This document shows, piece by piece, positions 16,005-54,528 of a stretch of DNA of 64,000 nucleotides. The position numbers and the translations under genes are program-made. The number at the start of each line of letters is the position of its first letter. Position 1 is the stretch's first letter. This stretch comes from a virus (Duplodnaviria > Heunggongvirae > Uroviricota > Caudoviricetes), in the IMG/VR virus record IMGVR_UViG_3300043219_000435; one strand, written 5' to 3'. A model generated the notes under the pieces. It was not told the origin of the DNA and did not search any database. It worked only from the letters and a program-made list of their open reading frames with translations.

Positions 16005-16637
16005 ATGGATTATGGAAATATAGTAATATTGACGGGTGCAGGAATATCTGCAGAATCTGGAATTCCAACATTCCGTGGTGACGATGGATTGTGGGAAGGT
16101 GAGCCGATTGAAGAAATTGGTACTTCTGAAGGATATAGAAAAGATCCTGAAAGAGTTATTTCTTTTTTAAATGAATTAATAGATAAGTTTGCAGCAAAAC
16201 CAAATGCAGCTCATTACGCTTTAGCTGAAGCGGAAGCTAAAGCAGTATCAAAAGGTTATAAATTTACCTTGATAACTCAGAACATTGATGATTTACATGA
16301 GCAAGCAGGTAGTAAGAATATCTTACATATTCATGGTCAGTTGAACAAAACGGTAATTGATGATAATGGTGAACCAAGACCTGATGTTGTTTTGTTTGGT
16401 GAAAATCCATATCATGTTAAAGAGATTCAGAAGATGATGAAGTTCTGCAGATTGTTTGTATCTATTGGAACATCTGGTGAAGTATTACCGGCAGCATCAT
16501 TTGTTGATTTAGCATTTCGTGGTAGGACTGTAGAACTAAATTTAGAATCTACATGTATCAGTAAACGATTTCAAGAATATTCTTATGGCCCTGCAACTAA
16601 AGTAGTTCCTGAATTTTTCAGCAATATCAATAAATGA
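16005..16637 (+). CDS. Sir2-family NAD-dependent deacylase/ADP-ribosyltransferase (short form without a Zn ribbon)
   Basis: GAGISAESGIPTFRG Rossmann motif; QNIDDLH; HIHG catalytic His. Confidence 0.7.
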   Translation: MDYGNIVILTGAGISAESGIPTFRGDDGLWEGEPIEEIGTSEGYRKDPERVISFLNELIDKFAAKPNAAHYALAEAEAKAVSKGYKFTLITQNIDDLHEQAGSKNILHIHGQLNKTVIDDNGEPRPDVVLFGENPYHVKEIQKMMKFCRLFVSIGTSGEVLPAASFVDLAFRGRTVELNLESTCISKRFQEYSYGPATKVVPEFFSNINK

Positions 16638-16819
16638 CAATTGAGTATTTAGACAGTATTGTATTACCTGAAGAGATTATATATTTAGTTCCATACAACA
16701 TTTATACTATAGAACGATATATAAAATTTCTTAGAAAACAAAATATTTATCAAACGTTTTGGAGTCGTATTACTTTATTTCAAACAGAACAATTTGGTTG
16801 GGAAGTAAATGACAGTTGA
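16634..16819 (+). CDS. LD(S/T)(I/L)V...GWEV family protein
   Basis: MTIEYLDSIVLP...FGWEVNDS; the N-terminus is encoded without the ACTAAAGT motif. Confidence 0.5.
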   Translation: MTIEYLDSIVLPEEIIYLVPYNIYTIERYIKFLRKQNIYQTFWSRITLFQTEQFGWEVNDS

Positions 16820-16994
16820 TTATTTAGACAGTGTTGTATTACCGGAAAAATATTATTATATCGTGCCGTTTCAAGTTAAGTCATTAAGACAATATTTAAA
16901 TTATATGAATAAATATCATAATAGATTGTATAGTGATTATAATAGAATTGTCGTATATCGACCAAAACAAATAGGTTGGGAAGTAAATAGTTGA
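16809..16994 (+). CDS. LD(S/T)(I/L)V...GWEV family protein
   Basis: MTVDYLDSVVLP...IGWEVNS. Confidence 0.5.
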   Translation: MTVDYLDSVVLPEKYYYIVPFQVKSLRQYLNYMNKYHNRLYSDYNRIVVYRPKQIGWEVNS

Positions 16995-17024
16995 AAATGA
17001 ATAATTTTACAAAAGGAAGAAAAA

Positions 17025-17393
17025 ATGACTAAGTTAATAATCGTGCTAAGGAAAGACCTTAATATGCGTAAGGGAAAAATGATCAGCCAAGGTGCTCATG
17101 CCGTTTTAAAAATTTTTACTGATAGAATTACAGATACAGGTTTTTTAGAGACGACTGTAGAGATGGATGAATGGTTAAAAACTGATTACACTAAAATTGC
17201 TTTAGCTGTTAATTCTGAAGAAGAATTGTTGACATTACAAAAAATAGCAGAAGAACAAAATATACCAAATGCTTTAATTAAAGATCTTGGAAAAACTGAA
17301 TTTAATGGTGTCGAAACGTATACTGCTTTAGCTATTGGTCCTGCACAAATAGATATTATTGATGGTATAAGTGGTCATTTAAAATTATTATAG
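17025..17393 (+). CDS. peptidyl-tRNA hydrolase, PTH2 family
   Basis: LIIVLRKDLNMRKGKMISQGAHAV... matches the PTH2 core (GK.AAQ..HA). Confidence 0.7.
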   Translation: MTKLIIVLRKDLNMRKGKMISQGAHAVLKIFTDRITDTGFLETTVEMDEWLKTDYTKIALAVNSEEELLTLQKIAEEQNIPNALIKDLGKTEFNGVETYTALAIGPAQIDIIDGISGHLKLL

Positions 17394-17522
17394 GAATACG
17401 AACTAAAGTAATCAATTGACAATTTTAAGTACTTTAGTTAATATAAACGTGTACGGCACGAGTTTCACAGATGGGTTGTTTAGTCAAGTTCGAATCTTGG
17501 AGCTAAAACCGTATTAACTAAA

Positions 17523-17702
17523 GTAGGTTTTATGAATATTATTACGATTGATGAACAAAATTATGAGATAGTTTATACATCGAAGAAGAGAGATGTTGCA
17601 GCAAATATTTGTTACAAATTGTGCGAATACACACCAGAGCTTTGTCATTGTGAATGTCAATGTGATGATGGTAAAGAATATTATTTAAAGAAAGTAAAAT
17701 AA
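17523..17702 (+). CDS. small Cys-rich protein
   Basis: ..CYKLCEYTPELCHCECQCDDG; follows AACTAAAGTAGG. Confidence 0.35.
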   Translation, partial: VGFMNIITIDEQNYEIVYTSKKRDVAANICYKLCEYTPELCHCECQCDDGKEYYLKKVK

Positions 17703-17867
17703 ATGGAAGTACTTATTGGGCCAGTAGCATTTGGAATCAAATATGGCATATGTCCTATATGTGGTTATGATAAAATAGAGTTAACTGATATTGAATGTTA
17801 TAAATGTGATCAGCCTGTACAACCAGTAGAACGGATACTTACAATAGAATTAAAGGATAAGAAATGA
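17703..17867 (+). CDS. small zinc-ribbon protein
   Basis: CPICGY...CYKCDQ; ATGA overlap with tsf. Confidence 0.35.
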   Translation: MEVLIGPVAFGIKYGICPICGYDKIELTDIECYKCDQPVQPVERILTIELKDKK

Positions 17868-18739
17868 ATATAACAGCATCACAAGTAAAAGAATTAAGAG
17901 AACTGACAGGCATTGGAATGATGCATTGTAAGAAAGCTTTGGTTGAATCTGAAGGTAATATTGAGAAAGCTATTGAGAATCTTCGTAAACAAGGTGAAGA
18001 TCTTTCAAATAAGAGAGCCGGAAAAGATGCCAATGAAGGTTGTGTATTTATAGGTTCTTCTCTTGATAAGACAGCAATTGTTGAGATTAATTGTGAGACT
18101 GATTTTGTAGCAAAGTGTGCAATCTTCCAGGATTTCGGTAAAGCTATTGTTGATTTGTTACTTGAAGGTGATTTCAATGATGTAAATGAATTACTTGGTG
18201 TAGGTATTGATGAGGAAGAGAATATCGAAACACTTGGAGATGCTATTAAACGAATGTCTGGAATGCTCGGTGAAAAGATTGAGATTAAACATTTTGAAAC
18301 TGAAGTAATTGGTGAATTTAATATTGTTGGTACATATTCTCATATGGGTGGTAAGATCGGTGTTATTATTAATTTGACATACAGTGGTTATCATGCAGAT
18401 AAAACGGTTTTAGAGGGTATTGCAAAGAAATTATGTATGCAGGTAGCAGCCACTAAACCAATTGCTGTTCATTCCCATAACGTATCTGAAACGGTCTTAA
18501 ACAAGGAACGTGAGATATACAAAGAACTTGCATTAAAAGCCGGTACTAAAGAAGAATATATTGATCGTCAAATTGAAGGAAAGCTCAAGAAATATCTTAA
18601 AGAAGTTTGTTTGTCTGAACAGAATTATATAAAAGACAATAAGACTTCAGTTGCTAAACTTTTAACAAAAACTGAAGTGGCTATGGGAATTGTTGATTTA
18701 GAGATTGATTCATTTGTTCGTTTTGAGCTTGGAAACTAA
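17864..18739 (+). CDS. tsf: translation elongation factor Ts
   Basis: N-terminal ITASQVKELRELTGIGMMHCKKALVESEGNIEKAIENLRKQG (EF-Ts UBA-like domain); typical length for the family. Confidence 0.85.
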   Translation: MNITASQVKELRELTGIGMMHCKKALVESEGNIEKAIENLRKQGEDLSNKRAGKDANEGCVFIGSSLDKTAIVEINCETDFVAKCAIFQDFGKAIVDLLLEGDFNDVNELLGVGIDEEENIETLGDAIKRMSGMLGEKIEIKHFETEVIGEFNIVGTYSHMGGKIGVIINLTYSGYHADKTVLEGIAKKLCMQVAATKPIAVHSHNVSETVLNKEREIYKELALKAGTKEEYIDRQIEGKLKKYLKEVCLSEQNYIKDNKTSVAKLLTKTEVAMGIVDLEIDSFVRFELGN

Positions 18740-18773
18740 ATTGACAAAGACATTTGAAGCTGTTGCTGTAAAG

Positions 18774-19410: not shown

Positions 19411-19412
19411 TT

Positions 19413-19886: not shown

Positions 19887-19912
19887 GGAGCAATAATTTG
19901 CTCCTTTTTTTA
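19887..19912 (+). terminator. rho-independent terminator
   Basis: GGAGCAATAATTTGCTCC hairpin followed by TTTTTTT. Confidence 0.6.
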
Positions 19913-20476
19913 TACCAATTCCTGGCATTCAGGGCACTTTTTCTCATCAGTTCTTATATATTTTTTATCTACAAAATCAACTAACCATACATCATTTCCT
20001 GTTTTATAAAAGTTAATTCCATCTTCAAACATTGCTTTAGCATCAATCAATGTAACCGCAGCTTTACCTCTTCTTTCTGCAACGTCTACTGCAGTATTAA
20101 TGTTGTCAGATAAATGTACATGATGCCTGGACATCTTTTTAATGCCAGTATTTAATATTGAAGACAATGATTTTATTGGGGTTCCGTGGAATAAAACATC
20201 CGGTGGTTTTATAGCTTCCAACTGAAGTATAACTTTTATCGAATGTCCTTGTTGGGCTTTGATTTTCAATCCATCTTCACTTAATATGAAGCGTTTTTTG
20301 TCATTCTTAGCCACAACTTCTTCAATTATGTCCCTGGTCAAGTCATATTTAGTAGTTTTTTGAATAAGTTCGTCAACATATGCCCAACCATGTTCATCAA
20401 TATTTAAATTTATAGATTCTGGTTTATGTCTTAATATTAAGCTTAAATATTTGGAGATGTGTGTTAATTTTTTCAT
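19910..20476 (-). CDS. kptA: RNA 2'-phosphotransferase Tpt1/KptA
   Basis: ISKYLSLILRHKPE...HGW..VDEL...KKRF.....G..I.A.QGHS...HGT...RHHVHLS aligns with KptA over the full length. Confidence 0.85.
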   Translation of the reverse strand: MKKLTHISKYLSLILRHKPESINLNIDEHGWAYVDELIQKTTKYDLTRDIIEEVVAKNDKKRFILSEDGLKIKAQQGHSIKVILQLEAIKPPDVLFHGTPIKSLSSILNTGIKKMSRHHVHLSDNINTAVDVAERRGKAAVTLIDAKAMFEDGINFYKTGNDVWLVDFVDKKYIRTDEKKCPECQELV

Positions 20477-20904: not shown

Positions 20905-21438
20905 TTAATTTAAATAGTTCTCAACTAAAGTAATTTCATCTTCATAATAAGGAAAAACTGTATCAAAATCTGTAGAAAAAGTTTTTAATTCTTCCAGGTT
21001 AATCCATTTTACTTCAGAAAGCTCTTCTGTTTGAATGATGAATTTATCTAGATCTTTTTCTCTACATTTTACAATAAAAACATCATTTATCTCGTGATCT
21101 ATAAATTTTCCATTATTAGAAATGGATTTCTTTTTTAATGACTTTATAAATTTAACATCTGCAGGAAATAATATAATACCTAATTCTTCGAAGACTTCTT
21201 TAATGACAGTTCTGAATGATCGATCACCGGCAACAACATGGCCACCACAAGAAATGTCCCACATTCCAGGAAAGGAATCTTTATTCTCAGATCGTTTTTG
21301 AATAAGAATTTGTTTATCTTCATTTATTAACCAGACATGAACCGATAAGTGCCATAAGCCTTCTTTATGAGCCTGTTCCCGTGGTGCTGTATTTCCGGTT
21401 TGTGTTCCGTCTTCATTTAATATATCTAAATATTCCAT
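20905..21438 (-). CDS. Nudix hydrolase
   Basis: Nudix box GGHVVAGDRSFRTVIKEVFEELGI. Confidence 0.7.
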   Translation of the reverse strand: MEYLDILNEDGTQTGNTAPREQAHKEGLWHLSVHVWLINEDKQILIQKRSENKDSFPGMWDISCGGHVVAGDRSFRTVIKEVFEELGIILFPADVKFIKSLKKKSISNNGKFIDHEINDVFIVKCREKDLDKFIIQTEELSEVKWINLEELKTFSTDFDTVFPYYEDEITLVENYLN

Positions 21439-24153: not shown

Positions 24154-24419
24154 TTTTTCCCTTTAAAAAATAAATGAGTCGATAGGTTATTATCCTACTT
24201 GCCTTATCCACGTACATTTTAATCCTATTATAACCGAAGCTACCATTCCGATAATGTGGATTATATCAGAGGTAATTACGCTGTTTCACATTATAATACA
24301 GACTCACTTCACAGTGCAACTCATCTATCAATAAAAACTAAAGTAATTTATATCATTTTTAATGTCAATACATAAATGATATGTTATATTATAACAATGA
24401 AAATTTATTAAGGATTAAT
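24154..24419. promoter_or_regulatory. 266-bp divergent intergenic control region
   Basis: Largest non-coding gap apart from the RNA clusters; lies between divergent operons and contains AACTAAAGTA, GTCAATA-N12-TTATATT and an AAGGAT RBS. Confidence 0.4.
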
Positions 24420-25079
24420 ATGAAAGTACTTATAACAGCCGGTAGCACCAAAACAATGATTGACCAAGTAAGATGTATCACCAACGTCTTTAAAGGCCGT
24501 ACAGGGGCTGATATGGCAGAATACTTTGGTGCAAATGGTCATTATGTTGATTTATTAACATCGAATACAGATATCAAATTAATGAACAATGTAATGGTCC
24601 TTCCTCATTACAAAACATATGATGATTTGTTTGAGTCAATGAAAAAATTTATTACTATGAAAAAATATGATGTGATTATTCATAGTGCTGCAGTATCAGA
24701 TTATAAACCTGATGGGATATTTAAACCTGATATGTCGTCTGGTGAATTGGAATTAGAATGTGTTTCTTCAGCAACTAAAGTAAGTTCTGATCATGATGAA
24801 CTTTATATCAAAATGATTCCTACAGAAAAGATAATAGATAAAATTCGTTCTGAATGGGGTTTTGAAGGTACTTTAGTTAAGTTCAAGTTACAAGTTGATA
24901 TGAAAGATAAAGAGTTAATATCGGTAGCCCAGGAATCTCGCAAAGCAAGTAATGCTGATATTATTGTTGCAAACTGTTTAGAATGGGCAAGAGAAAGAGC
25001 ATATATTTGTGATGATAATGGACATTTAAATGTTAAACGTTGTAATCTATCTAAAAAATTATTGGAGAAGATTAGCTAA
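24420..25079 (+). CDS. coaB: phosphopantothenate-cysteine ligase (CoaB domain)
   Basis: MKVLITAGSTKTMIDQVRCITNVFKGRTG...AAVSDY matches the CoaB domain of CoaBC. Confidence 0.75.
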   Translation: MKVLITAGSTKTMIDQVRCITNVFKGRTGADMAEYFGANGHYVDLLTSNTDIKLMNNVMVLPHYKTYDDLFESMKKFITMKKYDVIIHSAAVSDYKPDGIFKPDMSSGELELECVSSATKVSSDHDELYIKMIPTEKIIDKIRSEWGFEGTLVKFKLQVDMKDKELISVAQESRKASNADIIVANCLEWARERAYICDDNGHLNVKRCNLSKKLLEKIS

Positions 25080-25639
25080 TGAATATATTATTAGGAATCA
25101 CCGGATCTATCAGTGCATATAAAGCATGTGATATCATATCTGGATTAAATGCTACCGGCCATGATGTTAAAGTAATAATGACTGAAGATGCTAAAAACTT
25201 TATAACTGAAATGAGTTTATCAATTATTTCCGGTAGAGAAGTTGTTTCAAAATTTTCAACTGAAGTAACTGGTCAGGTTGAACATATTGATCTGGCTGAG
25301 TGGGGAGAAATGTTATTAATTGCTCCTGCTACTGCCAATACAATTGCAAAACTTGCAAATGGAATTTGTGATAATGTATTGACTGCAACCGCTTTAGCTT
25401 TTCGAGGAAAGTTTAAAATACTTGCTCCTGCAATGAATACTCTAATGTATGACCATAAAACAACCAAAGGCAATTTAAAAAAACTTGGGGGTAAATTTTC
25501 TGAAAAAAATGTTTGGCATATTATTGAACCTGATGAAGGATTGTTAGCTTGTGGTGAAACCGGAGTTGGTAAATTACGAAAACCTAGAAGGATCGTTGAA
25601 ATAATAAACAAACTGGTAACTTTAAAAGAGGAAATATAA
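25079..25639 (+). CDS. coaC: phosphopantothenoylcysteine decarboxylase (CoaC flavoprotein)
   Basis: LLGITGSISAYKA..GH.V.V.MTE.A..FI; LIAPATANTIAKLANG; PAMN..M. Confidence 0.8.
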   Translation: MNILLGITGSISAYKACDIISGLNATGHDVKVIMTEDAKNFITEMSLSIISGREVVSKFSTEVTGQVEHIDLAEWGEMLLIAPATANTIAKLANGICDNVLTATALAFRGKFKILAPAMNTLMYDHKTTKGNLKKLGGKFSEKNVWHIIEPDEGLLACGETGVGKLRKPRRIVEIINKLVTLKEEI

Positions 25640-26835
25640 TGAGCAAAGCAGTATTCGCATTCTCTGCAGATCCAATAACATTTGGACATATTGATATAAT
25701 CAAAAGAGCATTAACTATGTTTGATGAAGTTATAATTGCCATTGGTAATAATACTGAGAAAACATATTTGTTTCCAACAGAAAAAAGAATTGAAATGACA
25801 ATTGATGCTTTAGCTACTATTGGACATGTAAATCAATATCCATATACAAATACAGTTAAAACATATGAAGGTTTATTAATTGATTTTGCATATGAACAAA
25901 AAGCAAATGTAATCGTAAGAGGAGTTCGAAATGCTGCCGATTTTGATTATGAAAAAAGAATGGCTTTGTGTGGTGAATCCCAGGATCTTGATATAGAAAC
26001 CGTTTTGTTAATGTCAAATCAAAAATATGAACATGTATCTTCTGGATCTGTAAAATCTCTTTTAAAAAGTGGGGGCTTCATTCATAAGATGGTTCCTCTC
26101 AATGTTAAATATAATCTTGAAAAAGAACTGCTAAAGCAATATATAATTGGTGTAACTGGTGAGATGGGTTCCGGCAAATCATTTGTTACTAAAAAATTAA
26201 TTGAAAAGATCGAATCAAAAGGTTATGAAGTTCATCATCTGGATCTTGATAAGATTGCTCACGAAGTATTGAAAGATTTAAAACAACCTGCTTATGTAAA
26301 TGTAAGAAAAATGCTGATAAGTACTTTTGGATTGGTTCATCAATGCAATGACGATTATATTGACCGTGCAGAAATAGGTAAAATTATTTTTGCTGATAAA
26401 AATGATATGGAAACATTTAATTCTATAATGCTTAAACCAATGCTCACAAGAATCAAGAAAGAACTGTTTGGCAAGAAAGGAATCATTCTTTTCAACAGTG
26501 CATTATTGGCTGAAGCAGATTGGAATTTGATCTGTAATAATTTTGTAATACTTATTAATACAACCAAAGAACTTCAGTTAAAGCGTTTACTAAATCGTGG
26601 CTTGGATGAAGATCAAATTAAAGAACGTCTTGATAATCAATTGAGTTTTGAAGATAAATACAATAAGATTTATTCTGATATAACAAAACATAATCAAGGT
26701 AAAACTTTTGTGTTCGAAAATACTTTAGATGATCTTGAACCAGAATTGGAAAGAGTCACAACTGAAGTAATTAGTTCAATTATTAATACTGAAAATTATG
26801 ATGCCTATTACCAAGAAGTAAATGGTTTACTTTAA
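25639..26835 (+). CDS. coaDE: bifunctional phosphopantetheine adenylyltransferase / dephospho-CoA kinase
   Basis: N-terminal AVFAFSADPITFGHIDII..RGVRNAADFDYE (CoaD); C-terminal IIGVTGEMGSGKSFV... with a P-loop (CoaE). Confidence 0.8.
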   Translation: MSKAVFAFSADPITFGHIDIIKRALTMFDEVIIAIGNNTEKTYLFPTEKRIEMTIDALATIGHVNQYPYTNTVKTYEGLLIDFAYEQKANVIVRGVRNAADFDYEKRMALCGESQDLDIETVLLMSNQKYEHVSSGSVKSLLKSGGFIHKMVPLNVKYNLEKELLKQYIIGVTGEMGSGKSFVTKKLIEKIESKGYEVHHLDLDKIAHEVLKDLKQPAYVNVRKMLISTFGLVHQCNDDYIDRAEIGKIIFADKNDMETFNSIMLKPMLTRIKKELFGKKGIILFNSALLAEADWNLICNNFVILINTTKELQLKRLLNRGLDEDQIKERLDNQLSFEDKYNKIYSDITKHNQGKTFVFENTLDDLEPELERVTTEVISSIINTENYDAYYQEVNGLL

Positions 26836-29521: not shown

Positions 29522-29786
29522 GTTTATTATGCTTCGTTTTTAATAAATCTGTAAAATTGAAAAAATCTTCATGAGCCTTCCGTATTTTTGCTTTAAGCTC
29601 AACCATAAATACATCATTGAAAAAATGAAATCCATCATGAAATTCAACAACTAAAGTAACTTTACCTTGAGCAATTTTAACATAAACGATTCCTGCAGGA
29701 AATTGCATTTTATCATCTACCTTTAATGAAAAGAAAGATTTAAAGGGATTACCCTGTAACGATATTTGTATGCCATCTATAATCAT
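29514..29786 (-). CDS. hypothetical protein
   Basis: ORF. Confidence 0.35.
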   Translation of the reverse strand: MIIDGIQISLQGNPFKSFFSLKVDDKMQFPAGIVYVKIAQGKVTLVVEFHDGFHFFNDVFMVELKAKIRKAHEDFFNFTDLLKTKHNKHA

Positions 29787-30277
29787 TTATTAAGTTGTCC
29801 TCCAACTAATCTATCATATGCTTTCATATATTTGATTAATCGTCTAGAAAACGATTCTTGAGAATCTATTGACCAATCACCAAATACACGTCTTGACACA
29901 TCCAAATTGTGACGAAGATCTTCTATCTTAACTTCCCTGGCAATATCATTCTGTGCAACTATTTCAACATATTCTTCATAAGAATGTTTTTCTTTATCAT
30001 GAGTTAACGCACTGACTGCAGCTACAATTTCATAACTAAAGTCATATGACAAATCTTCTATAGTAATTTCATTCTTTTTACCCTTAGTATCTTCAACCAC
30101 ATCATGTAAGACAGCAACGATTAAAAATCTTTCATCAAAATTTTTTTCTTTTAATTTATGCATTACATGCATTGGATGAAATATATAAGGTCTTCCACTT
30201 TTATCCATTTGTCCTGCATGACCTGTAACGGATATGATTATTGCTCTATCTATATCATTCATAATTATCCTTTTCAA
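29783..30277 (-). CDS. small alarmone hydrolase (RelA/SpoT-type HD (p)ppGpp hydrolase)
   Basis: VTGHAGQMDKSGRPYIFHPMHV...VAVLHDVVEDT, the HD-domain signature of SpoT/Mesh1. Confidence 0.7.
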   Translation of the reverse strand: MKRIIMNDIDRAIIISVTGHAGQMDKSGRPYIFHPMHVMHKLKEKNFDERFLIVAVLHDVVEDTKGKKNEITIEDLSYDFSYEIVAAVSALTHDKEKHSYEEYVEIVAQNDIAREVKIEDLRHNLDVSRRVFGDWSIDSQESFSRRLIKYMKAYDRLVGGQLNK

Positions 30278-32867: not shown

Positions 32868-32876
32868 GATATCTCC

Positions 32877-40492: not shown

Positions 40493-40879
40493 ATGAAACT
40501 TACAAATCAAATGGTTTCAGAGCAGTATAAGAATATTCAATTCTTTCTTATGCCAAGTGATTTTAAAGGTGCTTTAGCTTATTATATAGCTGTTCAAAAC
40601 CCAAATGCTATACTTGAAAATAATGAAGCTTTAATTGCTTATATGGATTTCTTATATTTTGTACACTTTAAAAATCCTAAAGAACCAATAAAATTTACTT
40701 GTGAGAAATTAAGGAATATTGTAAATGAAGATATATTCTGTGCCATACCTGAAGTTCGAGACCTCAATGAAATGAGGCCGGACTTTATCGATTTAGGTGC
40801 TTTAGCCAGGAATGTCTATTATATGATTATTAAACAAGTTATCATTGAAGATAATCTTGCAGATCCTTTAATGTTATAA
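40493..40879 (+). CDS. hypothetical protein
   Basis: ORF coupled to the upstream gene. Confidence 0.4.
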   Translation: MKLTNQMVSEQYKNIQFFLMPSDFKGALAYYIAVQNPNAILENNEALIAYMDFLYFVHFKNPKEPIKFTCEKLRNIVNEDIFCAIPEVRDLNEMRPDFIDLGALARNVYYMIIKQVIIEDNLADPLML

Positions 40880-40896: not shown

Positions 40897-41181
40897 TTAA
40901 CATTTTAAATGTACTGCAGTCAAAGTAGGTTCTTCCGGTTCCGTTACTTTAGTTGCTACTTCTTCTATAAAAACTTCAATAACTTGTTTTTTGAAGTGTT
41001 TGCGTTTCAAATATTCTTGATATTTACCAATTAAAAATCTTTCACAATAATCTAAACTATAACATGATTTTGTATCATCATAAGAATCTTTATAAATATG
41101 CCAAAATAAAAAAGTTTTATATTGAGGTATATACTGTTTATTTGCCATGGCATCTAATTTAATAATAATTCTATATTTCAT
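40897..41181 (-). CDS. MK(Y/T)RI-family small protein
   Basis: MKYRIIIKLD...; paralog of 41277..41591, 43115.., 43404.. and 44629..; RBS AAGGA. Confidence 0.45.
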   Translation of the reverse strand: MKYRIIIKLDAMANKQYIPQYKTFLFWHIYKDSYDDTKSCYSLDYCERFLIGKYQEYLKRKHFKKQVIEVFIEEVATKVTEPEEPTLTAVHLKC

Positions 41182-41195
41182 TTTAAATCCTTAAG

Positions 41196-41270
41196 CAGAC
41201 GTGGAAGGAATCGAACCCTCACTAGCGCTGATTTTGGAGATCAGTGTTCTACCGTTTGAACTACACGTCT
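41196..41270 (-). tRNA. tRNA, anticodon CCA (Trp)
   Basis: Minus-sense AGACGTG TA GTTC-AAACGGTA-GAAC A CTGAT-CTCCAAA-ATCAG .. GAGGG-TTCGATT-CCTTC CACGTCT; canonical cloverleaf, no encoded CCA. Confidence 0.7.
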
Positions 41271-41276
41271 ATAATA

Positions 41277-41591
41277 TTAATATTCTATTGTGATTGGGGC
41301 AAAGTCTACGTTCTCTATTTTTCTATCTTTGTCAAGATCTACCTTAGGTCTTTTGTCAAATCTCATAGGAACAATATTTATTTCAATTGGTTGTTGGCCT
41401 TCTATCAAAAATCTCTTGCGTCTTACCTTAAAGTCATTTAGTATATTATTTGTGACACTTTTAATATTACGGTTATCTACAAATGAATTAAATGACACGG
41501 GAACATCGTACCAACATATAAAGCTTTTCATTTCAGAACGATAATATACTTCTCCATCGTCATTTACTTTTACAATTATTCTATATTTCAT
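41277..41591 (-). CDS. MK(Y/T)RI-family small protein
   Basis: MKYRIIVKVNDDGEVYY.. start with RBS AGGAG; the longer track ORF to 41675 would run through the tRNA. Confidence 0.45.
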   Translation of the reverse strand: MKYRIIVKVNDDGEVYYRSEMKSFICWYDVPVSFNSFVDNRNIKSVTNNILNDFKVRRKRFLIEGQQPIEINIVPMRFDKRPKVDLDKDRKIENVDFAPITIEY

Positions 41592-41604
41592 TTTAACTCC
41601 TAAG

Positions 41605-41677
41605 CAGGTGTGACAGGCATCGAACCCGTAACCGTTGGATTTGGAATCCAGTGCTCTGCCAATTGAGCTACACACCT
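41605..41677 (-). tRNA. tRNA, probably anticodon CCA (one anticodon-stem mismatch)
   Basis: Minus-sense AGGTGTG TA GCTC-AATTGGCA-GAGC A CTGGA-TTCCAAA-TCCAA .. ACGGG-TTCGATG-CCTGT CACACCT. Confidence 0.6.
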
Positions 41678-41815: not shown

Positions 41816-42919
41816 TTAAGCCTTTATGTTTATTAATGGAATAACTCGATGTTTTACTTCAACCAATTCTTCCTGTTCTTTCATTACATGGAAAATATCT
41901 TTATATGCAAATGGTGATTCATCAATTGTTCCTTGAATAACTTTTGCTTTAATACCTACCATAGATTCTTTAAAATCATCTAATGATATATTTTCTTTTG
42001 CTTGTCTTCTGCTAAGAATTCTACCGGCACCATGGGAAGATGAATAAAGAGAATCTGGATTTCCTTTACCTTCAACAATAAAAGACCCATCTCTCATATT
42101 CCCAGGTATCACACCTTCCATACCTGCTTCAGCATGTGTTGCACCTTTTCTATGAATCCACAAACCATCTTTAAATGTTGCATGATTATGATTTCTATTA
42201 ATCAATGATCTGAAATTTGCACCACCTTCACAATAATGTTTAATCTCTCTTACAACTCTTTCAAGCATTATCTCTCTATTACGAAGAGCAAACTCAAGAC
42301 AGAAATTAAGATCCATTATATAATTTTCACCTTCAACTGAAGTAACTTCTAAAGAATAATTTCCTTCTCTTGCTTTATTAGAATTTGAAGCAAGTTTCAT
42401 ATAATGTGTAGCAGTTTTATGACCAAGATTTCTAGATCCTGAATGAATAATAATCCAGATATCATCATTCTCATCATATCCTATTTCGATAAAATGATTT
42501 CCACTTCCCAGGGAACCCAATTGTTTTAATCCATTAATATCAAAATTTTCTCGACATGTTTTTGTACATTCAATTGCTTCAGCTTCTTTCCATGTACTTG
42601 AATGATCATTACGATTCATTCCGGTAGGAATTGCTCTATAGATACCATTAAAAATCTTTTCAGTTTGATCTACAATATCGCTCTTTTTAAAAGTGGTTTT
42701 TAAGGCACCTACACCGCAGCCAATATCATAACCAACCCATGCAGGGACAATATGTCCATCAGTGGCTACAACGGCTCCTATGGGTATAGAATAGCCCAAA
42801 TGTGCATCAGGCATCAATGCGCCACGTACAACAAAATCACATTTCATTGCATCATAAAATTGATTCATTGTTTTTGGTTCTATGTATTCAGCAAATACTT
42901 TATGTGGTTTTAATTTCAT
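41816..42919 (-). CDS. rtcB: RNA-splicing ligase RtcB (3'-phosphate/5'-OH RNA ligase)
   Basis: Full-length RtcB fold signatures: ..GCG.. Cys, NRNHNHA, SSSHGAGR, IPGNMRDGSFIVEG. Confidence 0.85.
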   Translation of the reverse strand: MKLKPHKVFAEYIEPKTMNQFYDAMKCDFVVRGALMPDAHLGYSIPIGAVVATDGHIVPAWVGYDIGCGVGALKTTFKKSDIVDQTEKIFNGIYRAIPTGMNRNDHSSTWKEAEAIECTKTCRENFDINGLKQLGSLGSGNHFIEIGYDENDDIWIIIHSGSRNLGHKTATHYMKLASNSNKAREGNYSLEVTSVEGENYIMDLNFCLEFALRNREIMLERVVREIKHYCEGGANFRSLINRNHNHATFKDGLWIHRKGATHAEAGMEGVIPGNMRDGSFIVEGKGNPDSLYSSSHGAGRILSRRQAKENISLDDFKESMVGIKAKVIQGTIDESPFAYKDIFHVMKEQEELVEVKHRVIPLINIKA

Positions 42920-43143
42920 TTTATCATCCTCTTGAGAAAAATTTCTGGGTAATCAGGTAATGGCATCCACCATTCTACATCTTTAGTATCACAGAAATAA
43001 TCATCTCCTTCTTCATCATCCCAACATTTATGATGGTCATTATAACACAGTATTTTCTGTGTTCCTTTATGTATAGCTAATACATAGGGATGTTTTTCAG
43101 GAGGTACTTGTACTTCAGTTTTTATCCAATCCGTCTTTTTCAA
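42916..43143 (-). CDS. hypothetical protein
   Basis: ORF. Confidence 0.35.
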   Translation of the reverse strand: MKKTDWIKTEVQVPPEKHPYVLAIHKGTQKILCYNDHHKCWDDEEGDDYFCDTKDVEWWMPLPDYPEIFLKRMIK

Positions 43144-43429
43144 AGAAAAACTCTTCTGTTAATTGTTGAATTTTCTTACCTGGATGTTCATCATATATGT
43201 AATCATGATATTTGATTGTAGTTACTTGGCTGTGTCGGCCTAAAAATCTACGTGCTTCATCAATATCGTAGAAATATATTTCATCACTACATTCAGGATG
43301 TGTATGTCTATCATACGTCCACCACATTGGAAATATCCAAAACAATCGGAATAAATGTTGTGGGTAAAACTTACTCTTACCGTTCTTCTTAACTTCTTTA
43401 ATTCTATACTTCATGGTCTGTCTCATCAT
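43115..43429 (-). CDS. MK(Y/T)RI-family small protein
   Basis: ..MKYRIKEVKKNGKSKFYPQ.. Confidence 0.4.
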   Translation of the reverse strand: MMRQTMKYRIKEVKKNGKSKFYPQHLFRLFWIFPMWWTYDRHTHPECSDEIYFYDIDEARRFLGRHSQVTTIKYHDYIYDEHPGKKIQQLTEEFFFEKDGLDKN

Positions 43430-43658
43430 GATATTTTACAACAGGAATACTATCAATTTTTTCTTGTATGAATGTTCTAGCATCTTTTATTGATTGGAAG
43501 GATATATTTCTTTTAATAGGTTGCATCTGTGGGAATGTAGGTGATGATGACATAATTTGATCCGTTTTTGTAAAACAAACCCATCCACTTAAATCTGCAT
43601 ACTGAGGGTAGAAACTACTTTTACCTTTAACAATTGATTCTTTTATTCTTGTTTTCAT
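43404..43658 (-). CDS. MK(Y/T)RI-family small protein
   Basis: MKTRIKESIVKGKSSFYPQ.. Confidence 0.4.
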   Translation of the reverse strand: MKTRIKESIVKGKSSFYPQYADLSGWVCFTKTDQIMSSSPTFPQMQPIKRNISFQSIKDARTFIQEKIDSIPVVKYHDETDHEV

Positions 43659-43744: not shown

Positions 43745-44632
43745 ATGAAAACAACATTTAAACGGTATGATAGTTCAGAAGGGAATGTCTGGAAGTATGT
43801 ATTTGATTTTGGTGACGCAATAGCTGAAGCGGTACTATATAAATATGAAGATTTTTATGAGCGTACAGTGATATGCATATCGGTCCAAAGTGGCTGTCCT
43901 GTAGGATGTACATTTTGTGGGACCGGCAAGAAATTTATTCGTAATCTTAATAGGCTTGAAATTGTTGAGCAAGTTGAAATTATTTTAGCGGATATGGATA
44001 TTAAAGATATAAGTCGTAATGGAAGAAGATTTCAAATAATGTTTATGTCTATGGGCGAACCATTTTTAAATTATGATGAGTTTAGTAGTGCGCTTGAGAG
44101 ATTAAATAGTTGTTATGTTAATGCTGAATTATTGGTATCAACAATTGCACCAAAAAAAGATGAAGAGAATTATGGTCATTTTATTGGTATGTCACAAACA
44201 TTTAGTAGAATTGGACTTCAGTTTTCAATCCACGAATCCAGTGATTATAGACGGAATATGTTGATACCATATAAGAACAAATATAATCTGAGAGAGATTC
44301 GAGATCTTGGATTAACTTGGCATATGAAAACGAATAGACCGGTTTATATTAATTATTGTGTTCACGAACATAATTCAGATATCACTGATTTTATATCTTT
44401 GAAAGATCTTTTTTCTCCCCTGGCATTCAGATTTACATTCTCAGTAATATGTTCTGCAGATGAGACTATGAAAGATGCAGGTGAAAAGAATATGGATTTA
44501 TTAACTAAAGTAAGTCAGAACTTTTTGAATGATGGTTATAATGTAAGAGTATTTGATCCGGCTGGACAAGATGATATTGGCGGTGGCTGTGGTCAGTTAT
44601 GGCATGTACAACAATGGATGAAAGAGCATTAA
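43745..44632 (+). CDS. radical-SAM RNA methyltransferase, RlmN/Cfr-like
   Basis: CISVQSGCPVGCTFCGTGKKFIRNL matches the RlmN ...SSQ.GC...C.FC.T...G..RNL motif; MSMGEPFLN; N-terminally shorter than RlmN. Confidence 0.6.
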   Translation: MKTTFKRYDSSEGNVWKYVFDFGDAIAEAVLYKYEDFYERTVICISVQSGCPVGCTFCGTGKKFIRNLNRLEIVEQVEIILADMDIKDISRNGRRFQIMFMSMGEPFLNYDEFSSALERLNSCYVNAELLVSTIAPKKDEENYGHFIGMSQTFSRIGLQFSIHESSDYRRNMLIPYKNKYNLREIRDLGLTWHMKTNRPVYINYCVHEHNSDITDFISLKDLFSPLAFRFTFSVICSADETMKDAGEKNMDLLTKVSQNFLNDGYNVRVFDPAGQDDIGGGCGQLWHVQQWMKEH

Positions 44633-47316: not shown

Positions 47317-49531
<2,215 letters not shown>

Positions 49532-50967: not shown

Positions 50968-51192
50968 TTATTCAACTTCTTCAGCAATGAAACCTATATG
51001 TGGTTCTTTATCTGAAGGAATAATACCAGGACTGAATTGTTCAGCTTCTATGATAAGAAATATACCTTCAACTTTTCCTTCAAACTTCATTTCTTTACCA
51101 ATATAATCTTTAAAGTCAGGGAAGTGTTCACCGCAGCAAGCTCTTCCTCGACCTGTTATATTAAAAGAATCTTGTACGATAAAGGTTTTCAA
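50968..51192 (-). CDS. hypothetical protein
   Basis: ORF. Confidence 0.35.
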   Translation of the reverse strand: MKTFIVQDSFNITGRGRACCGEHFPDFKDYIGKEMKFEGKVEGIFLIIEAEQFSPGIIPSDKEPHIGFIAEEVE

Positions 51193-51650
51193 AACTCACC
51201 TCTTATTGGATTGATTTCACCTTCAAGAACCTGGATAACCGGCAATTTCATTTCTATCCATTTATTAACAACTTTGTTTCGATCTTCCAGGATAAGTGCT
51301 ATATCTTCCGGTTTAATTCCTGCCTTGACGAGTAATTCAGGCTTTGCGATAGTATCACACCGTCTATCATTTTCTTCCTTCATAAGCAGCTTAAAATCAG
51401 AAATATTGATGTGTTGTTTTAGCCAAACTTTAGTTTCATCATAGATCTCTTTGCTTCTACCAGTACAAAATACAATCTCATAGCTTTTAGAAAGCATCTC
51501 GACTAATTGTATAATTTCTGGAATAGGGGTATCAAGAGTGCATAATTTAAAAAAGGTTCTGTAATCTTTTCTTTTTCTCTCGATAAAATGTACTCGATGT
51601 TGTATATCTGCAACTGTGCCATCAACATCAACGATAACTATATTTCTCAT
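51189..51650 (-). CDS. HAD-superfamily phosphatase (phage Pnkp-phosphatase-like / 5'-nucleotidase-like)
   Basis: Motif I IVIVDVDGTV, motif II FCTGR, conserved Lys, motif IV LEDR; 153 aa. Confidence 0.55.
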   Translation of the reverse strand: MRNIVIVDVDGTVADIQHRVHFIERKRKDYRTFFKLCTLDTPIPEIIQLVEMLSKSYEIVFCTGRSKEIYDETKVWLKQHINISDFKLLMKEENDRRCDTIAKPELLVKAGIKPEDIALILEDRNKVVNKWIEMKLPVIQVLEGEINPIRGEF

Positions 51651-52049: not shown

Positions 52050-52221
52050 CTCTCAAATTAATCTTGCAGATATAAAATAAATATAGAAAAAATATGTAAC
52101 ACTTTAAATAAAACATAACAACTTTACATAAAACGACACACTTGCAACTAAAGTAAAAAAGTAGTTCCTTATTATCGTTCTATTTAGATGCCCAGGAACT
52201 ACTTCGAAGTGTCTCATATAA

Positions 52222-52509
52222 CTATTTTATTAGGGATTTTCTCTTCTTTTCTTTGAGATATTTAGATAACTTGTGAATTAAATCTAACACTTCATCGGAT
52301 TTAAGTTCCAATCCTACACAAATCTTTGTAAAAACTTCCATTGAAGGCAAATGTATTCCATTCATGAGACGATTTAATGTTGTAGTATTCAATTTTGTTC
52401 TAGCTATCATATCACCAACCGAGCCATGCTTTTTATAATTTTCAATCAATAAATGCTGAACAGGATTGTTATCGAATGCAGGTAAATGCTTTTTAAATGC
52501 AGACTCCAT
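52222..52509 (-). CDS. HTH (XRE-like) DNA-binding protein
   Basis: Internal start MESAF with a 1-nt overlap with the upstream stop; TTTLNRLMNGIHLPSMEVFTKIC. Confidence 0.45.
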   Translation of the reverse strand: MESAFKKHLPAFDNNPVQHLLIENYKKHGSVGDMIARTKLNTTTLNRLMNGIHLPSMEVFTKICVGLELKSDEVLDLIHKLSKYLKEKKRKSLIK

Positions 52510-52787
52510 TAACTTGCACCTACTATATGTGTTAGCATAGATGCAAAATGAGGCACTTCTGAGCAAATAACTGTTTGTGTCATAGGTGTTATAGCACAAG
52601 CAGATAATGACGTTGAATGGGTTTCCTCGTCCTTAACTGAAGACAATTGAAAATCTTCACAAGATTCACAAGCCTCAGATCCTACTATAATTAATTTACC
52701 CTTACATTTTTTTTTATATGGGCATTTTTTTTCTTTTCCATTTTCATCAAGTGAAGAAATTTCTTGAGTGTAAATTTTATTTGCCAT
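52509..52787 (-). CDS. Cys-rich small protein
   Basis: CPYKKKC..CESCEDF. Confidence 0.35.
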   Translation of the reverse strand: MANKIYTQEISSLDENGKEKKCPYKKKCKGKLIIVGSEACESCEDFQLSSVKDEETHSTSLSACAITPMTQTVICSEVPHFASMLTHIVGAS

Positions 52788-52977
52788 TATTATCCTTTAA
52801 TTGTAAACTTTAGTTTACGGTGTTGCTTTAATTATTTGAAATATAACATAATATAACAAATTGGTCTGTAATTTTAATTATTTGGGAATTATATGCTGTT
52901 ATTGTAAAATAATGTACACATAAAGTTAAAAGTTATTTAAATTACCATAAAGCTATTACTTATTTGCTTGGAGGCAT

Positions 52978-53382
52978 ATGATTAACAAACAAGAATTAAC
53001 TACTTTGGTTGCATCTGATTTATTACATCCAGAAATGTCTGTACGTAAGCATCCTGAGTTGCTGTTTAACTTTTATTATAATCTCCATGAGATGTCTGAA
53101 ATTTATATAGATATTAATCGTCAAAAATCGTATTTTGTTAATATTCATACTAAGTTTTTATCTGAAAGTATCCAGTTCCTCAATGATTACAAAAAACTAA
53201 ATGAATCTTCTTATAACGTCGAATTCTGTCAATCATATGTTACTTATCATTATCCTTTCCATACTAATGATGAGTTTTGTTATTATCTCGATATTCTGGT
53301 AAAAGAAAGCGAAGATGATATAAAGTTATGGAAACGATCAGATGGTATCATGACAGATATCTTCGACATATTCAAAAAATAA
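52978..53382 (+). CDS. hypothetical protein (N-terminus QELTTLVASD resembles the family N-terminus)
   Basis: ORF; no GWEV C-terminus. Confidence 0.4.
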   Translation: MINKQELTTLVASDLLHPEMSVRKHPELLFNFYYNLHEMSEIYIDINRQKSYFVNIHTKFLSESIQFLNDYKKLNESSYNVEFCQSYVTYHYPFHTNDEFCYYLDILVKESEDDIKLWKRSDGIMTDIFDIFKK

Positions 53383-53406
53383 GAGGCTTACGCCTCTTTA
53401 TTTTTA
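53374..53406. terminator. bidirectional rho-independent terminator
   Basis: A7, then GAGGCTTACGCCTC hairpin, then T8. Confidence 0.6.
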
Positions 53407-53615
53407 TAATTATTACACCATTTTATTTTCCAAGTTGGATCGAAGTTGATAGGATAGAAAAACCATCCATTTTGTATACCATATCCTTCACCTTTCATAT
53501 TTGGATCTGGAACAGCACATGATGAGTGACAATCACCTGGACAGGTGCGTCTATGTTCACAACTATAGCATTCATTCTGTATGGTTCTTGCATCACCTGC
53601 CATAATATTCCTCAA
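53388..53615 (-). CDS. Cys-rich small protein
   Basis: CYSCEHRRTCPGDCHSSC. Confidence 0.35.
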   Translation of the reverse strand: MRNIMAGDARTIQNECYSCEHRRTCPGDCHSSCAVPDPNMKGEGYGIQNGWFFYPINFDPTWKIKWCNNYKNKEA

Positions 53616-54528
53616 TCATATCAATCATTATTTTTTCAATATTATCTCTATCGGGTTCTTCTGGAAAATCTGATTTTTCATAAAGAACTTCAATATCAGC
53701 TTGAAGATCATTTGCCAACTGAAGTAAATCCTCATATTTCCATTTTCCAAATCTAATATCTTTCAATTGATCAGCATCAATTCCAGTACGATCAACAATA
53801 ACTTCACCGGTTTCAAATATTTCTTTAGATTGCTTTAGCAGCCTGATAACATGCATTGCATGTTTAGTATCATAACCTACTTTTAATTCCTGTTTAAGAC
53901 GGTCTACATTACGATTTTTCATGTGAGAGACATAATCATTGTATTCTTGTAATTGCTTCTGATAAAGCTTCTCTGCCTTTACTTGATCATGTATACCAGG
54001 ATTTAAATATTTTTCTGGAATTGATAATATTGCTTTTCCGTGAATTTCAAATTCATCTTTACGTACAGGCTTTACAACGTTCTTATCGAGCCAAGACTTG
54101 TGTCTCTTCAATCGATGCAATTGAGCTTGAGCATAACAAGTATAAGTATTTTTGATTCTTTTTGATATGAATTGATATCGGTTGTCATAGATTTCCATCC
54201 AGATAGAATCACAATAAGTCCAAAATTCAGGAGGTGCAAATAATATATCCAACATATTAGGATTGTTATTAAGCATTAACTTTAAAGCTTTTTGTAATGA
54301 ATAAATTACGTTGTCAGTATCTCGATCTTCGAATTGTTGATAGTCTTTGAACCCCAGGATATATTCTTTGGGAGGTATTGCAATACCTTTATAATCATGA
54401 TCTGATTCGTCACAAAAAGTACCGTATAATCGTGATCCAGTAAGTGTTTTGAAAATACAATTATTAGTTGCTATTTTCTTTTCGTTATCATAGTTTATTA
54501 CATCTTGTTCTGTTTTTAATTCTTTCAT
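53593..54528 (-). CDS. Pol-beta-superfamily nucleotidyltransferase
   Basis: N-terminal LTGSRLYGTFCDESDHDYKGI (hG[GS]..G....D.D minimal NTase motif) plus a helical C-terminal domain. Confidence 0.5.
   Translation of the reverse strand: MKELKTEQDVINYDNEKKIATNNCIFKTLTGSRLYGTFCDESDHDYKGIAIPPKEYILGFKDYQQFEDRDTDNVIYSLQKALKLMLNNNPNMLDILFAPPEFWTYCDSIWMEIYDNRYQFISKRIKNTYTCYAQAQLHRLKRHKSWLDKNVVKPVRKDEFEIHGKAILSIPEKYLNPGIHDQVKAEKLYQKQLQEYNDYVSHMKNRNVDRLKQELKVGYDTKHAMHVIRLLKQSKEIFETGEVIVDRTGIDADQLKDIRFGKWKYEDLLQLANDLQADIEVLYEKSDFPEEPDRDNIEKIMIDMIEEYYGR

Follow-up and report, generated by a model that had tools for sequence, protein, structure and literature searches.

Do RNA-repair and translation genes that share a phage genome work as one pathway? 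The question is raised by a stretch of 64,000 nucleotides of viral DNA (Caudoviricetes; IMG/VR record IMGVR_UViG_3300043219_000435), analysed at its full length and called the window here. A preliminary description had named seven genes between positions 16,005 and 54,528, encoding RtcB, Tpt1/KptA, PTH2, EF-Ts, a HAD 3'-phosphatase-like protein, a Pol-beta nucleotidyltransferase and an RlmN/Cfr-like radical-SAM methyltransferase, and had read them as a phage strategy of protecting or repairing the tRNA and rRNA pool. We confirmed all seven open reading frames (ORFs) at their coordinates. The explanation that we favour, and consider moderately probable, is that an uncultured jumbo phage has gathered a number of modules, independent of one another, that undo damage to RNA and the translation apparatus or make it tolerable.

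How are the genes arranged? They fall into at least four separate transcription groups, on both strands and over 38 kb (16.0-21.4, 40.9-44.6, 51.2-55.6 and 60.6-63.5 kb). The last group, a Ro60 gene with an RNA array, lies outside the interval first described. Measured from RtcB, the nucleotidyltransferase (RlaP, see below) is 10.7 kb away and Ro60 ~19 kb. We compared the window proteins with 80 viral radical-SAM loci and 80 viral RlaP loci, each taken with 10 kb on either side. Around the radical-SAM genes, each other member of the set occurred in no more than one or two loci; around the RlaP genes no RtcB of this type was found, and the HAD phosphatase was present in two loci. A conserved repair locus was rejected, as the genes do not recur beyond single loci and one syntenic relative. 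Because the groups are separate over 38 kb and other viral contigs do not keep the homologous genes together, the 'toolkit' is a repertoire of the whole genome, not a pathway locus.

The end chemistries of the enzymes do not chain, which favours parallel modules over a single pipeline. We observed directly the presence of the genes, their family membership and intact catalytic motifs, the structure of the Y-like RNAs, the phage origin and the absence of clustering elsewhere; all substrates, in vivo roles and any cooperation between modules we infer. Profile hidden Markov model searches, proposed in the preliminary description, placed RtcB, KptA, PTH2 and EF-Ts above the gathering thresholds (GA) of their families; Radical_SAM stayed below its GA, the RlmN and Cfr models below their cut-offs, and NTP_transf_2 was unmatched. 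The gene set is not a chance pattern, since such genes are individually rare among GenBank phage records, though large phages do accumulate them: in 50,697 records RtcB is common (708); rarer are Tpt1 (97), PTH2 (38) and EF-Ts, whose 10 records are mostly bacterial DNA binned by mistake.

Predicted chemistry of the gene groups

RtcB (367 amino acids; 41816..42919, minus strand) was recognized at its first-described position by Pfam PF01139 (305 bits, GA 27) and by PHROG 1075 (378 bits). Alignment to the Pyrococcus and Thermus enzymes (PDB 1uc2, 2epg) showed that the catalytic motifs are intact: DxxC (YDIGCG), GNH (GSGNHF), HSGSR, HN (NHNH) and SHGAGR (SSHGAGR). The Asp, Cys and His metal ligands and the guanylylated His of SHGAGR are all retained. 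In the Pyrococcus protein the aligned residues are presumably D95/C98, H203, H234, H329 and H404. The predicted activity is the GTP/Mn2+-dependent joining of 3'-phosphate or 2',3'-cyclic-phosphate ends to 5'-OH ends. The NCBIfam equivalogs were not reached (PRK09588, 167 against 407 bits; TIGR03073, 135 against 272 bits), hence no subtype is assigned.

Two diverged tRNA-Trp(CCA) genes (41195-41270 and 41604-41677, minus strand; ARAGORN, Rfam tRNA ~61 bits each) immediately follow RtcB on its own strand, each with a small paralogous ORF starting MKYRII behind it. Three small ORFs with no Pfam match (42916..43658, minus strand) precede RtcB in the same apparent operon. The minus-strand unit thus runs from the three small ORFs through RtcB, tRNA-Trp(CCA), a small ORF and the second tRNA-Trp(CCA) to the paralogous small ORF. 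A near-consensus promoter-like site, TTGACA-17-TATACT (11/12 matches), is found at 43704-43676, in a region where promoter-like sites are not above shuffled controls. The tRNA-Trp(CCA) and the MKYRII ORF form a tandem duplication (40897-41677, minus strand) whose tRNA stems have strongly diverged between the copies.

The RtcB operon and its two phage tRNA-Trp genes (40.9-43.7 kb) would make up a first module, in which RtcB would reseal 2',3'-cyclic-phosphate or 3'-phosphate/5'-OH breaks directly, with no need for a further end-healing enzyme. Ends of this kind are those made by metal-independent ribotoxins and anticodon nucleases. The co-orientation of RtcB with phage tRNAs fits tRNA rescue.

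The closest viral relative of this RtcB (62% identity) lies inside a 13-tRNA island (locus L184). There, RtcB is followed by a distant radical-SAM protein, a tRNA-Arg and an ATP-dependent RNA ligase (9953-14189, plus strand). The radical-SAM protein is a distant RlmN-like one with the first mechanistic Cys missing, and the ligase shows an apparent intein interruption at its KxxG motif (KIHG/C...HN/S). In another locus (L186) a homologue of the window's radical-SAM protein (51% identity) is encoded 2.8 kb from RtcB, and in Salmonella phage Arash 6.5 kb separate the two genes. Taken together, this is a weak, recurring association of radical-SAM genes with RtcB of this subfamily.

RtcB had also been pointed out as a partner of Ro60 and Y RNA, and the counterpart is present beside the region. 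A Ro60/Rsr orthologue with TROVE and vWA domains (560 amino acids; 61835..63517, minus strand; TROVE 83 bits, vWA_Ro60 43 bits) is 72% identical to its orthologue in the syntenic relative. Downstream of it, an array of ~7 RNA units (60615..61760, minus strand) was delimited by a shared 5' motif, Rfam YrlA matches and folds. The 5' motif, GTGTTGCAG-N7-8-AGTTACTTCG, is invariant across the units, the 3' motif is TTTTACCCAT-like, and the array ends in an intrinsic-terminator-like hairpin. Four units are Y-RNA-like: within a two-part terminal stem they hold a permuted tRNA-like domain (T-arm, acceptor-like hairpin, D-arm), and they carry an invariant UGCA...UUACUUCG motif. Their Rfam YrlA (RF02553) scores are 25-38 bits, under the GA of 69, so that they have a YrlA-like architecture and are not members by score. 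Because they score below that threshold, the array may be a distinct phage Y-RNA family. The same array is found in the syntenic relative (locus L104, 289-3000, plus strand), and a consensus structure of eight units from the two phages has compensatory changes in 23/30 pairs.

Two further units of the array have a normal tRNA-like order. One (61540-61612, minus strand) is called as tRNA-Ser(GCU) and has a short variable arm; the other (60637-60716, minus strand) has a CAU anticodon loop, a long variable arm and an extended stem in place of the acceptor end. Both follow the 5' motif of the Y units and may not be ordinary decoding tRNAs. The module (60.6-63.5 kb) would be a Ro60-Y-RNA ribonucleoprotein handling misfolded or damaged RNA; with four Y-RNA copies and their clear covariation, it is a tractable example from a phage.

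The group at 16.0-21.4 kb consists of SIR2, PTH2 and EF-Ts on the plus strand and Tpt1 and NUDIX on the minus strand. Its first gene encodes a minimal SIR2/sirtuin (210 amino acids; 16005..16637; Pfam PF02146, 111 bits; PHROG 2162). The NAD-binding and catalytic His motifs are present, and there are no cysteines between the catalytic His and RPDVVLFGE, so that the usual zinc-binding module is missing. The identities first given to PTH2 and EF-Ts held. PTH2, a peptidyl-tRNA hydrolase (122 amino acids; 17025..17393), matched Pfam PF01981 over its full length (109 bits, GA 23; residues 3-122 on profile positions 2-115 of 115). EF-Ts is also full-length (291 amino acids; 17864..18739; Pfam PF00889, 186 bits, GA 27; no PHROG family) and has the N-terminal TGIGMMHCKKAL and CETDFVAK motifs. 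The TGIGMMHCKKAL and TDF (Asp-Phe) motifs of EF-Ts are its contacts with EF-Tu.

Where does the EF-Ts gene come from? It is most closely related (52-60% identity) to tsf genes of Fibrobacterales that lie in an rplM-rpsI-rpsB-tsf-pyrH-frr context. In the window the rpsB-tsf-pyrH context is absent and EF-Ts is flanked by ORFans and PTH2. Because of these neighbours, as compared with the canonical context of the closest homologues, we read it as a host-type gene captured outside its cellular context, which argues against a cellular origin of the window. Since its relatives are Fibrobacterales tsf genes, the capture points towards a host that is possibly in the Fibrobacterota. A published list of huge-phage genes with a supposed role in maintaining elongation includes EF-Ts (Al-Shayeb et al. 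2020, PMC7162821); unlike those, the window EF-Ts has a nameable likely donor (Fibrobacterales-like) and adjoins PTH2 in an NAD+-linked cluster. By analogy with that proposal, PTH2 and EF-Ts plausibly keep translation going under stress, the former by recovering tRNA from peptidyl-tRNA that has dropped off, the latter by increasing the recycling of EF-Tu.

On the other strand, Tpt1/KptA, an NAD+-dependent RNA 2'-phosphotransferase (188 amino acids; 19910..20476), matched Pfam PF01885 at 167 bits (GA 26) and NCBIfam NF002014 at 227 bits, slightly under the cut-off of 239. It is ~57% identical to Runella slithyformis Tpt1 (PDB 7kw8, 166 bits) and keeps the Arg-His-Arg-Arg tetrad (LRH, KKRF, SRHHVHLS). 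A scan of a genome collection returned only cyanobacterial homologues (46-51% identity), which are uninformative on the host. The adjoining NUDIX hydrolase (20905..21438; 67 bits) could process ADP-ribose derivatives. Together with NUDIX or SIR2, Tpt1 would spend NAD+ on removing RNA 2'-phosphates or on processing ADP-ribose derivatives.

Which of these two is it? Tpt1 had first been assigned the removal of the 2'-phosphate left by healing and sealing. Family and tetrad agree with that, and no partner that produces the 2'-phosphate was found: neither a Trl1/Rnl-type ligase nor a 2H cyclic phosphodiesterase is encoded by any window ORF. Because RtcB junctions carry no 2'-phosphate and no 2H or Trl1 enzyme is present, Tpt1, SIR2 and NUDIX may have as much to do with NAD+/ADP-ribose conflict as with RNA repair. 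It is possible, if somewhat unlikely, that these three, along with the DNA ligase LigA and a Tad5-like protein, mainly serve such a conflict and not 2'-phosphate removal; they would ADP-ribosylate nucleic-acid ends, degrade ADP-ribose-derived immune signals or help the phage to cope with NAD+ depletion. Tpt1, SIR2, NUDIX and the NAD-dependent LigA all use or process NAD+ or ADP-ribose, and viral KptA, sirtuin and Nudix have been treated as one NAD+-ADP-ribose network (PMC9503650). The Tad5-like protein (type I Thoeris inhibitor; 128 amino acids; 40493-40879, plus strand), possibly an anti-defence gene product, is a weak match of 30.9 bits against a GA of 27, with no single domain stretch passing. 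However, the Tpt1 has the complete tetrad of bona fide 2'-phosphotransferases and its close resemblance to the Runella enzyme, and in the same survey phage KptA and sirtuins of this kind are read as enzymes that clean up RNA ends (PMC9503650). Moreover, NAD+ salvage genes were not found in the window, and there were no PADLOC matches to defence systems. Run on the SIR2, HNH, RlaP, NUDIX, HD, Tpt1 and Tad5-like proteins, PADLOC returned generic HTH and Nudix matches only, and a role for them as defence-system components was discarded.

The group at 51.2-55.6 kb encodes the HAD phosphatase, two HTH proteins, RlaP, an HNH protein and a 176-residue protein. The HAD protein (153 amino acids; 51189..51650, minus strand) had been likened to the 3'-phosphatase half of Pnkp, and Pfam HAD_PNKP (PF25109) matched it at 89 bits (GA 27.6). 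Aligned to the phosphatase domains of T4 Pnkp and Pnkp1, it shows the DVDGT nucleophile, the conserved Lys and the (E)DR motif IV. It stands alone, with no kinase domain, and the search for a Pnkp kinase that the preliminary description had suggested found none among the window ORFs. Its orthologue in the syntenic relative is 75% identical.

The nucleotidyltransferase (311 amino acids; 53593..54528, minus strand) had been put forward as a possible CCA-end repair enzyme, an idea that we rejected. It matched only the RlaP family (Pfam PF10127, 71 bits, GA 23; PHROG 388, 217 bits), and the CCA-adding and NTP_transf_2 profiles gave no match at E<=0.01. The catalytic signature GS...DxD is present as G31-S32...D43-H-D45. 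A sequence search of the PDB with RlaP gave nothing useful. The family owes its name to genes that adjoin an RNA ligase, an arrangement that the window lacks, its RtcB being 10.7 kb distant. According to a 2025 preprint (PMC12776372), RlaP enzymes add one or two nucleoside monophosphates to RNA 3'-OH ends; their proposed role is to restore nucleotides lost to 'excising' ribotoxins such as RloC, and the T4 homologue is NrdC.11. Upstream of RlaP (54525..55612, minus strand) lie the genes of a GmrSD_C-like HNH nuclease domain protein (181 amino acids; GmrSD_C 30.6 bits) and of the 176-residue protein, the stop of the former overlapping the RlaP start. Only the syntenic relative, among the 80 RlaP loci, keeps both with RlaP (57-61% identity); the remaining 79 do not. 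The relative also conserves HAD together with the RlaP operon. In this module the HAD phosphatase would expose a 3'-OH and RlaP would re-add one or two nucleotides. The phosphatase fits RlaP better than RtcB, because it removes the 3'-phosphate that RtcB needs and RlaP needs a 3'-OH.

Could the HAD phosphatase instead treat DNA? DNA 3'-phosphates are also substrates of T4 Pnkp-type phosphatases, and 1.7 kb from the HAD gene lies a full-length NAD-dependent DNA ligase, LigA (47540-49531, plus strand; 760 bits). Both genes are kept in the syntenic relative. We nevertheless think it unlikely that the pair serves DNA repair or replication and not RNA: the HAD gene is on the strand opposite LigA and on the same strand as RlaP, ~2 kb away, and it matches best the phosphatase domains of Pnkp enzymes that act in RNA repair.

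Parallel modules or one pathway

Can the enzymes be joined into a single healing-and-sealing pathway? In such a pathway HAD, RlaP, Tpt1 and RtcB would act one after another on the same cleaved tRNAs, and at a later stage the methyltransferase, PTH2 and EF-Ts would complete the recovery of translation. Every component lies inside 38 kb of one genome, and in Pseudomonas RlaP genes are found inside RtcB operons (PMC12776372). The chemistry is the obstacle. RtcB needs a 3'-phosphate, which HAD removes and which is absent from RlaP products; the authors who described RlaP flag its 3'-OH product as incompatible with RtcB (PMC12776372). RtcB junctions offer no 2'-phosphate to Tpt1, and neither a kinase nor a 5'-phosphate ligase is present. 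The layout points the same way, with at least four groups on both strands, the 10.7-kb gap between RtcB and RlaP, and 0/80 RlaP loci with this RtcB type within 10 kb. Thus, we regard the single pathway as distinctly improbable and retain the independent modules. The protective strategy first proposed agrees with surveys of jumbo phages (PMC7824862, PMC9503650, PMC7162821); an integrated pathway is unsupported.

We looked for missing partners by a Walker-A scan and by a Pfam scan of all 73 remaining ORFs. The sole true Walker A motif of the window is that of CoaE, and the 73 small ORFs, scanned together, yielded only one TPR protein and one DUF551 protein.

Several points weigh against independent repair modules. 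A 5'-kinase, an ATP-dependent RNA ligase, 2H/LigT, Macro and RtcA are absent from the window and ~9.5 kb beyond its end, which are part of a genome of at least 131 kb. The HAD-RlaP module ends in a 3'-OH that RtcB cannot use and would require a 5'-kinase and a 5'-phosphate ligase. Tpt1, as described above, has no evident source of 2'-phosphate RNA in the window. The activities and substrates of the enzymes are predictions. Scans with RtcB, EF-Ts and Tpt1 missed the 212-kb syntenic relative, although these were exact-peptide-word scans, by which absence is unproven; because the nearest relative contig was not recovered, the three genes may be recent, dispensable acquisitions. Finally, tRNA density appeared to fall with distance from radical-SAM genes before de-replication; both gradient and peak were gone after de-replication to 54 loci, and tRNA proximity was rejected as evidence of a tRNA substrate.

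How does the repertoire compare with known systems? In jumbo phages the same gene classes have been read as counter-measures to host attack on tRNA and translation (Iyer et al. 2021, PMC7824862), and the viral NAD+-ADP-ribose network has been covered as well (Iyer et al. 2022, PMC9503650). The repertoires described there by Iyer, Anantharaman, Krishnan, Burroughs and Aravind share with the window RtcB, RlaP, KptA/Tpt1, the PNK-type HAD phosphatase and TROVE/Ro60 with tRNA-like RNA, as well as phage tRNAs, sirtuin, Nudix and NAD-dependent ligase. By comparison, the window has RtcB as its only RNA ligase, and its HAD, RlaP and KptA come without polynucleotide kinase, 2H and Macro. It adds EF-Ts and the RlmN/Cfr-like enzyme, neither of which was found in the 2021 survey (PMC7824862), where PTH2 appears only as a cited reference.

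With the T4 Pnkp-Rnl1 system the window shares a phage Pnkp-type HAD 3'-phosphatase with DxDGT and an RlaP homologue (T4 NrdC.11). It differs in having no 5'-kinase, fused or separate, and no ATP-dependent Rnl ligase, so that sealing would fall to RtcB, whose end chemistry is the opposite. The bacterial rsr-yrlBA-rtcBA operon and the Pseudomonas rtcB-rlaP-rtcA operon have Ro60, YrlA-like RNAs, RtcB and RlaP in common with it. In contrast to these operons, the window genes are dispersed, RtcA and RtcR are absent, and there are four Y-like RNAs in addition to other tRNA-like units. RNA-repair and translation toolkits of this sort have thus already been described for big phages, and no new principle is established here. 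The gene set is a good example of large phages stocking enzymes that keep RNA and translation working under host attack, and two mis-annotations within it, 'CCA repair' and 'Cfr-like resistance gene', are corrected.

A phage clade of RlmN/Cfr-like enzymes

The least explored element of the gene set is the RlmN/Cfr-like radical-SAM protein (295 amino acids; 43745..44632, plus strand). Its gene is divergent from the RtcB operon, across an 86-bp spacer with the promoter-like site inside. We wondered whether the protein is RlmN, Cfr or neither. It scored 27.9 bits with the generic Pfam Radical_SAM model, under the GA of 29.5. Full-length NCBIfam matches reached 100 bits for RlmN TIGR00048 (cut-off 290), 71 for Cfr (550) and 79 for CfrAB (530), the Cfr models being TIGR04432 and NF000424. 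The cluster motif CxxxCxxC is present as CPVGCTFC. The two additional cysteines of the superfamily, a methyl carrier and a resolving Cys, are kept as well: Cys43 ('ICISVQSGC') and Cys283 ('GGCGQL') align with Cys118 and Cys355 of E. coli RlmN, and the MGEP and CGQL motifs are common to the window protein and RlmN/Cfr. An AlphaFold2 model (mean predicted local distance difference test score, pLDDT, 86.9) had only RlmN/Cfr structures as its top six Foldseek matches (template-modelling scores, TM, 0.66-0.77; E 1e-11 to 1e-16), viperin following only after a wide gap.

Membership of the superfamily is therefore carried by sequence, fold and cysteines, as the preliminary description had it; the A2503 and A37 targets that it named are analogies only. 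The protein is just 24-28% identical to Cfr, Cfr(C), Cfr(D), E. coli RlmN and two other bacterial RlmN, references that were taken from annotated records. Its alignment starts near position 87 in E. coli RlmN and position 75 in Cfr, the N-terminal domain of ~80 residues being missing, and all 38 aligned phage homologues are likewise ~295 amino acids long. The phylogeny that had been suggested to decide between RlmN and Cfr placed it outside both: in a small, distance-based neighbour-joining tree without bootstrap, 12 phage homologues group with the window protein in a clade of their own, within which identity is 50-66%. As judged from its sequence, then, the protein is a phage-specific third branch of the RlmN/Cfr methyl synthases, neither RlmN nor Cfr. 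Compared with those two, it shares CxxxCxxC, both mechanistic cysteines, MGEP, CGQL and the fold, and differs in its low identity, its own phage clade, its missing N-terminal domain and its scores under the family cut-offs. Most likely it C-methylates an adenine in an RNA, a statement that covers the chemistry and not the substrate or the methylated carbon.

The protein had also been linked to Cfr-type multi-drug resistance. That it is a Cfr-type 23S rRNA A2503 C8-methyltransferase conferring drug resistance, or an RlmN orthologue, would agree with its superfamily membership by sequence and fold and with its two mechanistic cysteines; we consider it very improbable, as the scores lie well under the curated cut-offs (put at 4-7-fold), the protein is equally distant from both families and groups with phage homologues in its own clade, and the ~80-residue N-terminal domain of both is absent. 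The point has a practical side: pipelines label this phage family '23S rRNA (adenine2503-C2)-methyltransferase', a label that could be misread as a phage-borne resistance determinant.

What might the clade act on? We suggest tentatively, as a rather unlikely but specific idea, that its substrate differs from A2503/A37 and that it C-methylates adenines of, for example, phage or host tRNAs or another RNA. If so, the methylated RNAs would resist host RNA-targeting nucleases or work better after repair. A bolder variant, which is a possibility, has the clade act on phage DNA.

The family is widespread in metagenomes. Homologues occur in more than 227 IMG/VR contigs, and in a large protein collection the best 120 matches are all ~295 amino acids long and at least 58% identical, metagenomic matches numbering in the thousands. 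The short family is seen in only ~10-20 of the 50,697 GenBank phage records and is barely represented in PHROGs. No description of phage RlmN/Cfr-like enzymes was found in the literature searched, though a prior description is still possible. An abundant, uncharacterised phage clade of RlmN/Cfr type is a defined biochemical target.

The only recurrent neighbour of the phage RlmN/Cfr-like gene is a calcineurin-like metallophosphoesterase of ~164 amino acids, found within 1.5 kb in 17/79 loci. A second metallophosphoesterase type lies near the gene in six further loci. Examples, assigned by motif reading only, are L002 11059-11553 and L050 11859-12545, both on the plus strand. The window itself has no such metallophosphoesterase gene.

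Phage origin and other genes of the window

Is the window phage DNA? Its G+C content is 31%, and short ORFs are packed densely on both strands. Roughly 120 ORFs were found, ~70 of them without a Pfam match, and most window genes are ORFans. The part of the window from 45.6 to 63.8 kb shows synteny with the end of a 211,777-bp IMG/VR viral contig, IMGVR_UViG_3300037245_001419 (locus L104). Besides Ro60 (72%) and HAD (75%), the orthologues include RlaP (61%), LigA (63%) and a Na/Ca exchanger (79%). A 131-kb JGI contig encodes proteins identical to those of the window, there is a Phage_VG64 gene just outside the window start, and viruses supply the nearest homologues of RtcB, RlaP and the radical-SAM protein. 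The 64-kb window has no gene for a capsid, portal or terminase protein, and megablast of the RtcB/radical-SAM region against GenBank phages gave no match. Because of the synteny with the 212-kb viral contig, the excess of ORFans, Phage_VG64, the Tad5-like gene and an EF-Ts outside its cellular context, we conclude that the window is jumbo-phage DNA, part of an accessory region, with a relative of 212 kb. That it is a bacterial chromosome or plasmid, with EF-Ts, PTH2, RtcB and the others as ordinary housekeeping genes, is extremely improbable: the 64 kb without structural or packaging genes and the cellular homologues of many genes (CoA synthesis, LigA, PspA, TerD) would agree with it, but tsf lacks its universal rpsB/pyrH neighbours, more than half of the ORFs are unmatched in Pfam, the syntenic contig is classed as viral, DUF551, Phage_VG64 and Tad5-like genes are present, and RtcB, RlaP and the radical-SAM protein have viral closest homologues.

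The window holds several other gene clusters. A CoA biosynthesis block (24381-26835, plus strand) encodes a CoaB-like protein (DFP C-terminal domain), a CoaC-like flavoprotein and a CoaD-CoaE fusion, which combines pantetheine-phosphate adenylyltransferase and dephospho-CoA kinase. A small HD_4 protein (RelA/SpoT-type HD; 29783-30277, minus strand) is a possible (p)ppGpp hydrolase. It is followed along the map by a membrane-stress cluster (31122-34201, minus strand) with a PspA/IM30-like protein, YqiJ (N-terminal and OB domains) and a flotillin/SPFH protein (YqiK-like).

A Ter-type cluster (56878-60489, minus strand) between RlaP and the Y-RNA array is kept in the syntenic relative at 36-79% identity. 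It contains two TerD-domain proteins, a TerB-like protein, a 202-residue protein and a membrane protein of the Na+/Ca2+ exchanger family. Just past the window end (L086 1-10000), an HNH protein and, with a weak match, an RNase T-like exonuclease are encoded, as is a DUF2201 (VWA/metallopeptidase-like) protein that forms a pair with a MoxR-type AAA_5 ATPase.

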